Shown here one piece after another: positions 1-555 of a DNA stretch of 555 nt. The stretch lies in sequence record EF517104.1. One strand, given 5' to 3'. Under the pieces are notes generated by a model. The model did not search any database, had not been told where the DNA came from, and was given only the letters and a program-made list of their open reading frames with translations. The translations under genes and the position numbers were made by a program. Numbering within the stretch: position 1 is the first letter of the stretch; every line of letters starts with the position of its first letter. This DNA is from a phage.

Positions 1-111
1 TAGAGTGCATAAAGTATGCATAATGGTGTACCTAGAGTGATCTCTAAGAATGGTGATTATATTGTATTAGTATCACCTTAACTTAAGGACCAACATAAAG
101 GGAGGAGACTC
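1..111 (+). other. Non-coding leader upstream of gene 19.5; presumably transcribed from a promoter upstream of the window
   Basis: Seen: the only ATG-initiated ORF is 21 codons (16-81) with no Shine-Dalgarno. No match to the T7 RNA polymerase promoter consensus (TAATACGACTCACTATAGGGAGA) and no convincing -35/-10 pair. Established knowledge (recalled): in T7 the phiOR promoter lies a few tens of bp upstream of this window start and transcribes through gene 19.5. Confidence 0.5.
100..107 (+). promoter_or_regulatory. Shine-Dalgarno / ribosome-binding site for the 112-261 ORF
   Basis: Seen: AAAGGGAGGAGACTCATG; GGAGG at 101-105, 6 nt before the ATG at 112-114 (AGGAG at 103-107 gives a 4 nt spacer). 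A canonical strong SD at near-optimal spacing. Confidence 0.75.
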
Positions 112-261
112 ATGTTCCGCTTATTGTTGAACCTATTGCGGCATAGAGTCACTTACCGATTTCTTGTGGTACTTTGTGCTGCCCTTGGGTACGCATCTCT
201 TACTGGAGACCTCAGTTCACTGGAGTTTGTCGTTTGCTCTATACTCACTTGTAGCGATTAG
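112..261 (+). CDS. 19.5: Small hydrophobic protein of unknown function, 49 aa (T7 gene 19.5-like)
   Basis: Seen: ATG at 112, 49 sense codons, TAG at 259-261, strong SD immediately upstream. Hand translation: MFRLLLNLLRHRVTYRFLVVLCAALGYASLTGDLSSLEFVVCSILTCSD. Basic N-terminus (R3, R10, H11, R12, R16) followed by a hydrophobic stretch (FLVVLCAALGYASL) suggests a membrane-associated or single-pass peptide. All three reverse-strand frames have stops inside 112-261, so there is no competing antisense ORF. Established knowledge (recalled): T7 gene 19.5 is a 49-codon terminal gene at about 39389-39538, which fits this window if position 501 is the start of the right terminal repetition. Confidence 0.8.
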   Translation: MFRLLLNLLRHRVTYRFLVVLCAALGYASLTGDLSSLEFVVCSILTCSD

Positions 262-354
262 GGTTTTCCTGACCGACTGATGGCTCACCGAGGGATTCAG
301 CGGTATGATTGCATCACACCACTTCATCCCTATAGAGTCAAGTTCTAAGATATA

Positions 355-500
355 CCCATAAAGAGCCTCTAATGGTCTATCCTAAGGTCTATACCTAAAG
401 ATAGGCCATCCTATCAGTGTCACCTAAAGAGGGTCTTAGAGAGAGCCTATGGAGTTCCTATAGGGTCCTTTAAAATATACCATAAAAATCTGAGTGACTA
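355..500. repeat. Short-repeat region flanking the terminal repetition (CCTAAAG-family heptamers; SRR-like)
   Basis: Seen: exact CCTAAAG at 394-400 and 423-429 (plus 517-523 and 541-547 inside the terminal repetition). One-mismatch variants CCTAAGG 381-387, CATAAAG 357-363, CATAAAA 481-487. Local tandem TCTATCCTAAGG (376-387) / TCTATACCTAAAG (388-400). Four exact copies of one heptamer in 555 bp is well above chance (about 0.03 expected per specific 7-mer). Established knowledge (recalled): arrays of this heptamer flank the T7 terminal repetition on its inner sides. Confidence 0.6.
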
Positions 501-555
501 TCTCACAGTGTACGGACCTAAAGTTCCCCCATAGGGGGTACCTAAAGCCCAGCCA
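501..555. repeat. Terminal repetition, first 55 bp (right-end copy of a direct terminal repeat; truncated by the window)
   Basis: Seen: 501-555 = TCTCACAGTGTACGGACCTAAAGTTCCCCCATAGGGGGTACCTAAAGCCCAGCCA. Established knowledge (recalled): this is identical to the first 55 nt of the T7 genome, whose terminal repetition is 160 bp. Its position immediately downstream of a 19.5-like ORF fits the right genome end. The window stops inside the repeat. Confidence 0.75.
526..538. other. Inverted repeat / potential hairpin CCCCC-ATA-GGGGG inside the terminal repetition, flanked by CCTAAAG direct repeats
   Basis: Seen: CCCCC (526-530), ATA loop (531-533), GGGGG (534-538). Bracketed by CCTAAAG at 517-523 and 541-547, giving CCTAAAG-TT-CCCCCATAGGGGG-TA-CCTAAAG. 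Function not determinable from sequence. Confidence 0.5.

Follow-up and report, generated by a model that had tools for sequence, protein, structure and literature searches.

The 555-nucleotide (nt) stretch of DNA examined here, which we refer to as the window, is the right end of a variant of bacteriophage T7, and the element of interest within it is the short open reading frame (ORF) at positions 112–261, annotated in T7 as gene 19.5. The window aligns without gaps to positions 39278–39832 of the T7 reference genome (NC_001604; 39937 bp) with 98.6% identity, and the ORF corresponds to 39389–39538 of that genome. The encoded protein, gp19.5, shares 48 of its 49 residues with that of reference T7 and carries S39F at a position that is variable in the family. 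The eight differences between the window and the reference (positions 41, 136, 153, 227, 265, 344, 350, and 444; 1.4% of the window) are all C-to-T or G-to-A transitions, and this transition-only pattern is the signature of a chemically mutagenized or heavily passaged T7 line, not of a natural relative. A search of the phage collection for this exact variant found no identical record.

The original prediction for this locus proposed a 49-residue peptide with a very strong ribosome-binding site, encoded by the last gene before the genome end and too short for confident homology inference. The ORF is real and kept in 95 loci, the GGAGG element precedes its start at the spacing listed in Table 1, and gene 19.5 is the last coding sequence (CDS) before the right end in the T7 record. 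The reservation about homology, however, does not hold. The protein scores 84.9 bits against the NCBIfam model NF040465 "T7_gp19.5" (cutoff 33; E = 3.1e-24) and 39.6 bits against Pfam DUF5465 (cutoff 25), and it matches PHROG 2193 with E = 2e-24. With tblastn, gene 19.5 turns up in 703 phage records, the identity falling to 39% in Pseudomonas phages, and a profile search with an alignment as the query recovered 262 protein clusters (90% identity) at E ≤ 0.01. The alignment query was needed to reach this wider family; a word-index protein search with the single peptide gave only six close relatives. An exhaustive hidden Markov model (HMM) search of 1.84 billion representatives gave only 30 clusters (50% identity), all of 35–91 residues.

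In all 95 phage loci that we fetched, from at least eight genera, the annotated frame (frame 0) is open and encodes 48–57 residues, and the family position is the same, with the large terminase gene (gene 19) on one side and the right terminal repeat on the other. The gene is in frame throughout the T7-like subfamily Studiervirinae. The start codon is ATG in all but two of these loci, which use TTG or GTG, and an AGGAGG-type site precedes the start in every one. Among 114 cluster representatives, L8, H11, R12, T14, F17, L18, V20, G26, E38, C42, and C47 are at least 90% conserved, and the window protein has the whole motif HR.T[YW][RK]FL ... G ... E...C....C, including Y15 and R16. Of the three cysteines that the original prediction singled out for a conservation check (positions 22, 42, and 47), the latter two are thus conserved, whereas C22 is kept in only 11 of the 114 representatives. 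The ratio of nonsynonymous to synonymous substitution rates (dN/dS) of gene 19.5 is 0.10 in a pair of Pseudomonas phages, in which the proportion of synonymous differences (pS) is 0.59 and equals that of gene 19, and it ranges from 0.5 to 1.15 among enteric phages. The ORF is far beyond a chance reading frame, and by the conservation of its sequence it is a genuine protein-coding gene, the known and conserved T7 gene 19.5.

The 49-residue product is probably a small membrane peptide, as the original prediction proposed from its basic and hydrophobic character. Five basic residues lie within the first 16 (R3, R10, H11, R12, and R16), and residues 1–11 are amphipathic with a helical moment of 0.77. 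The hydrophobic core at residues 17–31 has a Wimley-White octanol value of −5.0 kcal/mol over 15 residues; the Kyte-Doolittle maximum over 19 residues is 1.59, with a core of only about 15 residues. TMHMM, as run by others, gives one transmembrane segment (PMC2680503, PMC4283147). The predicted layout is an amphipathic basic N terminus (residues 1–16), the core, a polar linker, and a C-terminal LE..VC....C segment, which would bear the conserved E38, C42, and C47; the C terminus, hydrophobic and with two acidic residues, does not form a basic tail. AlphaFold2, run with the 114-sequence alignment, places helices at residues 2–9, 12–31, and 34–48 with low confidence (pLDDT 65, pTM 0.35), and a search of solved structures returned no relative, only spurious matches of residues 4–21 to antibody heavy chains. 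The peptide would sit in the inner membrane through a short helix at residues 17–31, with its arginine-rich N terminus expected to stay in the cytoplasm because of the positive-inside rule.

Synonymous constraint and the open +1 frame

Gene 19.5 changes at synonymous sites far less than its neighbor. We compared Nei-Gojobori distances for gene 19.5 and for the last 133 codons of gene 19 in the same genome pairs. Between T7 and the T3-like phage AP5, pS is 0.20 in gene 19.5 and 0.77 in gene 19; the corresponding values are 0.03 and 0.20 for T7 and phiA1122, and 0.28 and 0.70 for T7 and KP32. The low pS of gene 19.5 relative to gene 19 is systematic over 3570 pairs (binned). The proportion of nonsynonymous differences (pN) is similar in the two genes in the same pairs; because it is not lowered together with pS, recent horizontal transfer as the source of the low pS is rejected.

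Nucleotide diversity (pi) among 17 close relatives of T7 gives a similar picture. At codon positions 1, 2, and 3, pi is 0.113, 0.049, and 0.107 in gene 19.5, the second position being the most conserved, and 0.051, 0.029, and 0.185 in gene 19. The segment from the Shine-Dalgarno element to the ATG has a pi of 0.039. Noncoding DNA at 262–500 has a pi of 0.08–0.11, below that of gene 19 third positions, and the spacer between genes 19 and 19.5, including the promoter phiOR, is the most variable part (0.26–0.30). The original prediction had opposed conservation as DNA to conservation as protein, and at this locus both are found: synonymous sites are strongly constrained while conservation at the protein level is also clear. 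Together, these two results indicate an ORF that codes for protein and is under a second layer of constraint.

The +1 reading frame of gene 19.5 is open over most of the gene (Table 1). In all 85 enteric loci (55 unique ORFs), it is free of stops from codon 16 or earlier to 13–31 nt past the 19.5 stop, and in 76 of them it ends exactly 19 nt past that stop. Given the protein and the codon usage of gene 19, about two +1 stops are expected in the last 33 codons, and the probability of an open frame is 0.02–0.2 per genus-level representative and about 0.05 for T7 alone. Permutation of synonymous codons within each ORF gave probabilities of zero stops from 0.004 to 0.47. Applied to gene 19, the same test reproduces the off-frame stop count that is observed there, which indicates that the method is calibrated. 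Codons of the form NTA make up 34% of choices at sites where they are harmless in the +1 frame, but are used at 0 of 92 sites where a +1 stop would result; the within-ORF permutation, together with the frequent use of NTA at harmless sites, leads us to reject codon bias as the explanation of the open frame. Parsimony on a neighbor-joining tree counts at least 247 changes, of which 9–17 would be expected to make a +1 stop and none did (Poisson p = 8e-5 or lower for zero stop-creating changes).

The substitutions themselves also distinguish the frames. For the part of the gene from F17 onward, pooled pN/pS amounts to 0.95 in frame 0, 0.60 in the +1 frame, and 1.53 in the +2 frame; in a trio of Pseudomonas phages, it is about 0.25 in frame 0 and at least 1 in the +1 frame. 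Over the 16 nt past the 19.5 stop, changes at +1 codon positions 1, 2, and 3 number 15, 13, and 29, and those in the first three full +1 codons past this stop number 10, 3, and 18; no three-base periodicity was seen beyond the +1 stop. Both window substitutions that fall in this frame, at positions 227 and 265, are synonymous in it. In the +2 frame and the three minus-strand frames, stops are about as frequent as expected, and no open frame is conserved. A few genomes have gene-finder calls in the +1 frame, as in phrog_30163 (E = 1.2e-8), and PHROG 30163 appears to consist of such calls. The record of Yersinia phage Yep-phi (locus L008, 612–860) annotates a +1-frame ORF of 82 residues instead of gene 19.5.

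Toward the upstream end of the open frame, whose limit precedes it, lies a candidate +1 slip site, UUU_C, formed by the Phe17 codon and the first base of the following leucine codon (Table 1). All 85 enteric loci encode Phe17 as TTT and have a CTN leucine codon next, with flanking codons that vary synonymously; the Dickeya and soil clades share this arrangement. In gene 19, the same phages prefer TTC (77 TTC versus 13 TTT). With 33 loci added by a metagenome scan, including the soil clade, 78 unique sequences were available; the +1 frame is open in 70 of 70 with TTT_C and in 3 of 8 with TTC_C (Fisher p = 2.7e-6), the other 5 TTC sequences containing +1 stops. When these were grouped into 16 clusters at 70% identity, 13 contained TTT only and were all open in the +1 frame, and a fourteenth, with 12 TTT sequences and 1 TTC sequence, was also wholly open. 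One TTC locus, L119, has five +1 stops, against 4.6 expected at random. According to the portions of a 2016 recoding review that we draw on, UUU_Ynn has a particular tendency toward +1 frameshifting in bacteria and is the proposed site in YopN-TyeA, and influenza PA-X uses UCC_UUU_CGU (PMC5009743). Those portions do not mention gene 19.5, and a +1 layer for the gene is in no annotation; the candidate recoding event is apparently unreported.

Natural fusions of the two frames were also recovered. The exhaustive HMM search gave clusters in which a frame-0 N terminus is joined to a +1 C terminus, the largest being KP32-like, with 55 residues and 12 distinct sequences. One fusion sequence was recovered from independent samples on 19 contigs, each about 40 kb long. 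At the DNA level, in eight contigs from different samples, a run of four G residues at codons G26–A27 is shortened to three; flanks and left-end genes vary among these eight contigs. The G3 allele joins residues 1–26 to the +1 C terminus; the deletion therefore means that these KP32-like genomes encode the +1 C terminus as their main product, without the frame-0 C terminus. The original prediction had counted tolerated frame-disrupting indels against a functional ORF, and this is borne out in part, as many KP32-like phages carry an allele with a one-base deletion. The allele fits a functional +1 peptide. The G4/G3 polymorphism lies at CCCTTGGG(G)CTTC, in frame-0 codons 25–27 of KP32-like loci L130–L137, and switches between a 49-residue and a 55-residue form. 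Members of the gp19.5 family were also seen in NCBI Pseudomonas sp. genomes (P0144, P0145, and P0159) on contigs of 671 kb and 721 kb, which suggests integrated T7-like elements in soil pseudomonads; these copies, too, switch from frame 0 to the +1 frame near the C terminus.

Features of the right end

The features of the window are collected in Table 1. The phiOR promoter starts at T7 position 39229, 49 nt before the window.

Table 1. Features of the 555-nt window, in window coordinates
Feature	Position	Strand	Description
AT-rich transcribed leader	1–97	+	Downstream of T7 promoter phiOR; from annotation and alignment
Shine-Dalgarno region	98–107	+	AAGGGAGGAG; GGAGG at 101–105, 6-nt spacer to ATG
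Gene 19.5 CDS	112–261	+	ATG at 112, TAG at 259–261; 49 residues, MFRLLLNLLRHRVTYRFLVVLCAALGYASLTGDLSSLEFVVCSILTCSD
Candidate +1 slip site UUU_C	160–163	+	Phe17 TTT, then C of Leu18 CTT; context CGA TTT CTT
+1 reading frame	161–280	+	Open from the slip site to TGA at 278–280, 19 nt past the 19.5 stop
Noncoding block rich in CCTAAAG-like repeats	262–500		Between the 19.5 stop and the terminal repeat
Imperfect palindrome	291–331		19-nt arms, 3-nt loop; from repeat search; center 311 = T7 39588
Right terminal repeat copy	501–555		First 55 bp of 160 bp; from mapping to T7

The terminal repeat is annotated in the phiA1122 record, and most T7 records have a second matching place, which would be the left-end copy of the repeat. 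The palindrome is centered 190 bp to the left of the terminal repeat; its arms are 79% complementary, and its DNA fold has an energy of −7.2 kcal/mol (z = −2.8). It is probably the "M-hairpin" site of T7 concatemer processing, a link that draws on Chung/Hinkle 1990. Within PMC2680503, the M-hairpin citations are Kim & Chung 1996 and Kim 1997, and Pac signals and the M-hairpin are known near this genome end (PMC9860248; citations in PMC2680503). The literature that we searched for pacB coordinates offers a general statement only, from which pacB is not placeable relative to the ORF.

Heptamers resembling CCTAAAG (at most one mismatch) occur 13 times in the window, compared with 2.2 expected; they span positions 8–547 and are densest at 329–547, with exact copies at 394, 423, 517, and 541. 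We take such short repeats to be of the type typical of T7 genome ends. By eye, the 3′ end of the ORF, ATACTCACTTGTAGCGA (242–258), looks like the T7 promoter core ACGACTCACTATAGGGA shifted by one base. The segment is unlikely to be a promoter, since phages whose polymerases recognize other promoters conserve it just as well. A scan of the window for sigma-70 promoters and intrinsic terminators stayed at the level of chance. In some phages (L034 and L056, and also L008 and L015), the spacer between genes 19 and 19.5 is expanded to about 650–740 bp, and the records of Yep-phi and fPS-26 contain an additional annotated CDS upstream of 19.5, which in Yep-phi encodes an HNH endonuclease.

Lysis genetics and competing explanations

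Published genetics tie gene 19.5 to lysis timing and plaque size, which supersedes the statement in the original prediction that no function had been assigned. In a T7 line without the holin gene 17.5, A24D in gp19.5 was the one strongly compensatory change, and E38G arose in a line without both endolysin activities; Heineman, Bull, and Molineux put gp19.5 forward as a possible second holin-like factor (PMC2680503). Xu et al. again recovered A24D and E38G and observed rising 19.5 mRNA during passage of a holin-deletion phage (PMC8365609). The gene is dispensable in genome-reduction screens (PMC9825161), and an older deletion of it also took out the adjacent M-hairpin (PMC2680503). A seamless deletion of gene 19.5 alone gives small plaques and reduces the burst size from 224 to 152 (PMC12153263). 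Late in infection, no T7 RNA is more abundant than the 19.5 transcript (PMC6938266). According to this published work, gene 19.5 is nonessential but relevant to fitness and modulates the timing and completeness of host lysis. Membership in a holin family was considered and rejected: the match to phrog_4712 "holin" has E = 0.1, hhalign against T7 gp17.5 gives a probability of 0.1%, and there is no match to a Pfam holin. The gene also lies outside the lysis cassette, separated from 17.5, 18.5, and 18.7 by gene 19 (1.76 kb) and a 258-bp intergenic region. We do not file gp19.5 as a member of a holin family.

The explanation that we favor, with a probability of roughly 0.55, is that gp19.5 is a membrane peptide with a role in lysis and that the second layer of constraint on its gene comes from +1 slippage into a conserved second frame. 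Gene 19.5 is transcribed late from phiOR and translated from its strong ribosome-binding site. At UUU_C of Phe17, a fraction of ribosomes would slip by +1, the P-site tRNA-Phe re-pairing from UUU to UUC, and the slipped ribosomes would read the open frame to the stop 19 nt past that of gene 19.5. The predicted trans-frame product consists of residues 1–16 followed by FLWYFVLPLGTHLLLETSVHWSLSFALYSLVAIRVFLTD, giving the 55-residue MFRLLLNLLRHRVTYRF-LWYFVLPLGTHLLLETSVHWSLSFALYSLVAIRVFLTD; this isoform would share residues 1–17 with the annotated peptide and have a different hydrophobic C terminus. The 49-residue form would act on permeabilization of the inner membrane alongside the gp17.5 holin. 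That the +1 frame is translated in some form is, judging from the sequence comparisons, an even bet or slightly better; the narrower proposal of ribosomal frameshifting at UUU_C itself falls a little short of even odds. Equally tentative is the suggestion that gene 19.5 is dual coded, with an isoform pair that may act in the manner of a holin and an antiholin to set lysis timing and with the second isoform fixed in the KP32-like phages that carry the G3 allele.

Several observations weigh against this explanation. The pN/pS of the +1 frame is only moderate, and part of it stems from conservative first-position changes that the frame-0 membrane helix tolerates. In two loci, L021 and L075, a one-base change in the G-run after the 19.5 stop breaks the last six or so +1 codons. 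The TTC lineages may represent only two or three independent events, and the G3 allele fits tolerated damage to a nonessential gene as well. We found no stimulator of frameshifting, neither an upstream Shine-Dalgarno-like element nor a supported RNA structure. The codon after UUU is CUU, CUC, or CUG, none of them slowly decoded, and it is the common CUG in the KP32 group; the efficiency may therefore be about 1% or less. The lysis evidence consists of compensatory mutations and deletions that alter both frames and possibly cis elements too (A24D is P-to-T and E38G is S-to-G in the +1 frame), and the literature that we searched does not report direct detection of either the 49-residue or the +1 protein. 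Finally, the flank at 262–500 is also conserved as DNA, and region-wide cis constraints therefore contribute.

This last point leads to the alternative that survives best, according to which gene 19.5 yields a single 49-residue product, and cis-acting DNA that overlaps the ORF at the right end, such as packaging or concatemer-processing signals or the secondary replication origin, would account incidentally for both the low synonymous change and the open +1 frame. We consider it unlikely, although it has substance: among close relatives, the noncoding block at 262–500 varies as little as codon positions 1 and 3 of the ORF, Pac signals and the M-hairpin are known from the vicinity of this end (PMC9860248; citations in PMC2680503), and with a chance of about 0.05 that the +1 frame of T7 is open, an open ancestral state could simply have been frozen. 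Cis-acting DNA surely operates within 262–500, and its reach may extend into the ORF. What such an element fails to predict, however, is that at least 247 substitutions should have occurred without creating a +1 stop, that NTA codons should be frequent at harmless sites and missing from all 92 stop-creating ones, or that TTT should be kept at Phe17 against the 77:13 bias. Nor does it predict that the TTC lineages should have lost TTT and an intact +1 frame together or that a three-base periodicity should appear past the 19.5 stop, and natural genomes commonly carry a one-base deletion within the supposed element.

That the +1 frame is instead an independent overlapping gene with its own start is improbable. 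A TTG codon is present in this frame at position 164 and another at 185–187, the latter kept in all enteric representatives inspected in the alignment, and the calls by gene finders in phrog_30163 and Yep-phi are in keeping with such a gene. However, the frame contains no ATG, no Shine-Dalgarno-like sequence precedes any candidate start and none is conserved, and TTG 164 is lost in close relatives, which have TTA, TGC, or TTC. The upstream limit of the open frame also varies and yet always precedes UUU_C.

It is no more credible that the synonymous constraint reflects an mRNA structure that stabilizes the abundant 19.5 transcript or tunes its translation. The abundance of this transcript late in infection (PMC6938266) would suit such a role; the window RNA folds slightly better than shuffled sequences (z = −1.84), and an alignment of 11 genera contains a hairpin at about 138–183 with a few compensatory pairs. 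The consensus over those genera nevertheless reaches only −4.25 kcal/mol with a covariation term near 0, the window has no Rfam match (E ≤ 1), and a structure leaves the frame-specific avoidance of stops unexplained. RNA structure as the main cause of the constraint is rejected on account of the weak consensus and the lack of covariation.

Least probable is that the ORF is nonfunctional as a protein and conserved only as DNA, with the deletion phenotypes arising in cis: the enteric dN/dS values, the early deletion that also lost the M-hairpin (PMC2680503), and the dispensable frame-0 C terminus revealed by the G3 allele would allow it, but 11 near-invariant residues in the 114 representatives, the dN/dS of 0.10 in Pseudomonas phages with free synonymous sites, the conserved second codon position, the start codon and ribosome-binding site kept everywhere, and the missense nature of the reported adaptive changes (PMC2680503, PMC8365609) all speak for a protein.

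Significance and comparison with known systems

T7 has been a reference genome since 1983, and gene 19.5 is among the last of its genes still annotated as encoding a hypothetical protein. Its deletion costs about one-third of the burst size and yields smaller plaques, which is relevant to minimal or engineered T7 chassis. If our proposal is correct, it would add an unannotated recoding event to one of the best-studied phages and a case in bacterial viruses of UUU_Y +1 frameshifting that is kept across many genera. It would also explain possible unexpected effects of synonymous recoding or of "seamless" edits at 19.5, and it would offer a tangible way to approach the second holin-like activity that has long been suspected in T7.

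The gp19.5 family has been described as a single-frame hypothetical protein, and the +1 layer is proposed here. The candidate site in gene 19.5 shares its slippery tetranucleotide with E. coli argI, Yersinia YopN-TyeA, and influenza A PA-X, in which tRNA-Phe can likewise re-pair on UUC. As in other UUU_Ynn systems, there is no obvious stimulator, the efficiency is probably low, and a shared N terminus would be joined to a new C terminus. Gene 19.5 differs from these systems in that the next codon is a leucine CUN and not a rare arginine codon, in that its product is only predicted, and in its small size, with a 17-residue shared part and a 38-residue +1 part.

A second parallel is the S105/S107 pair of phage lambda, in that one gene for a small membrane protein would yield a pair of isoforms and lysis timing could depend on their ratio, and gene 19.5, like the lambda S gene, is tied to holin function by genetics (PMC2680503). 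The lambda isoforms, however, arise from two start codons and lie only two residues apart, whereas those of gene 19.5 would differ over the whole C-terminal two-thirds and come from a gene without holin similarity outside the lysis cassette. A precedent within the same phage is gene 10A/10B of T7, in which a second product is likewise made by ribosomal frameshifting near a phenylalanine codon. Gene 10 shifts by −1 at G_GUU_UUC and extends the capsid protein, whereas gene 19.5 would shift by +1 and early in its reading frame.

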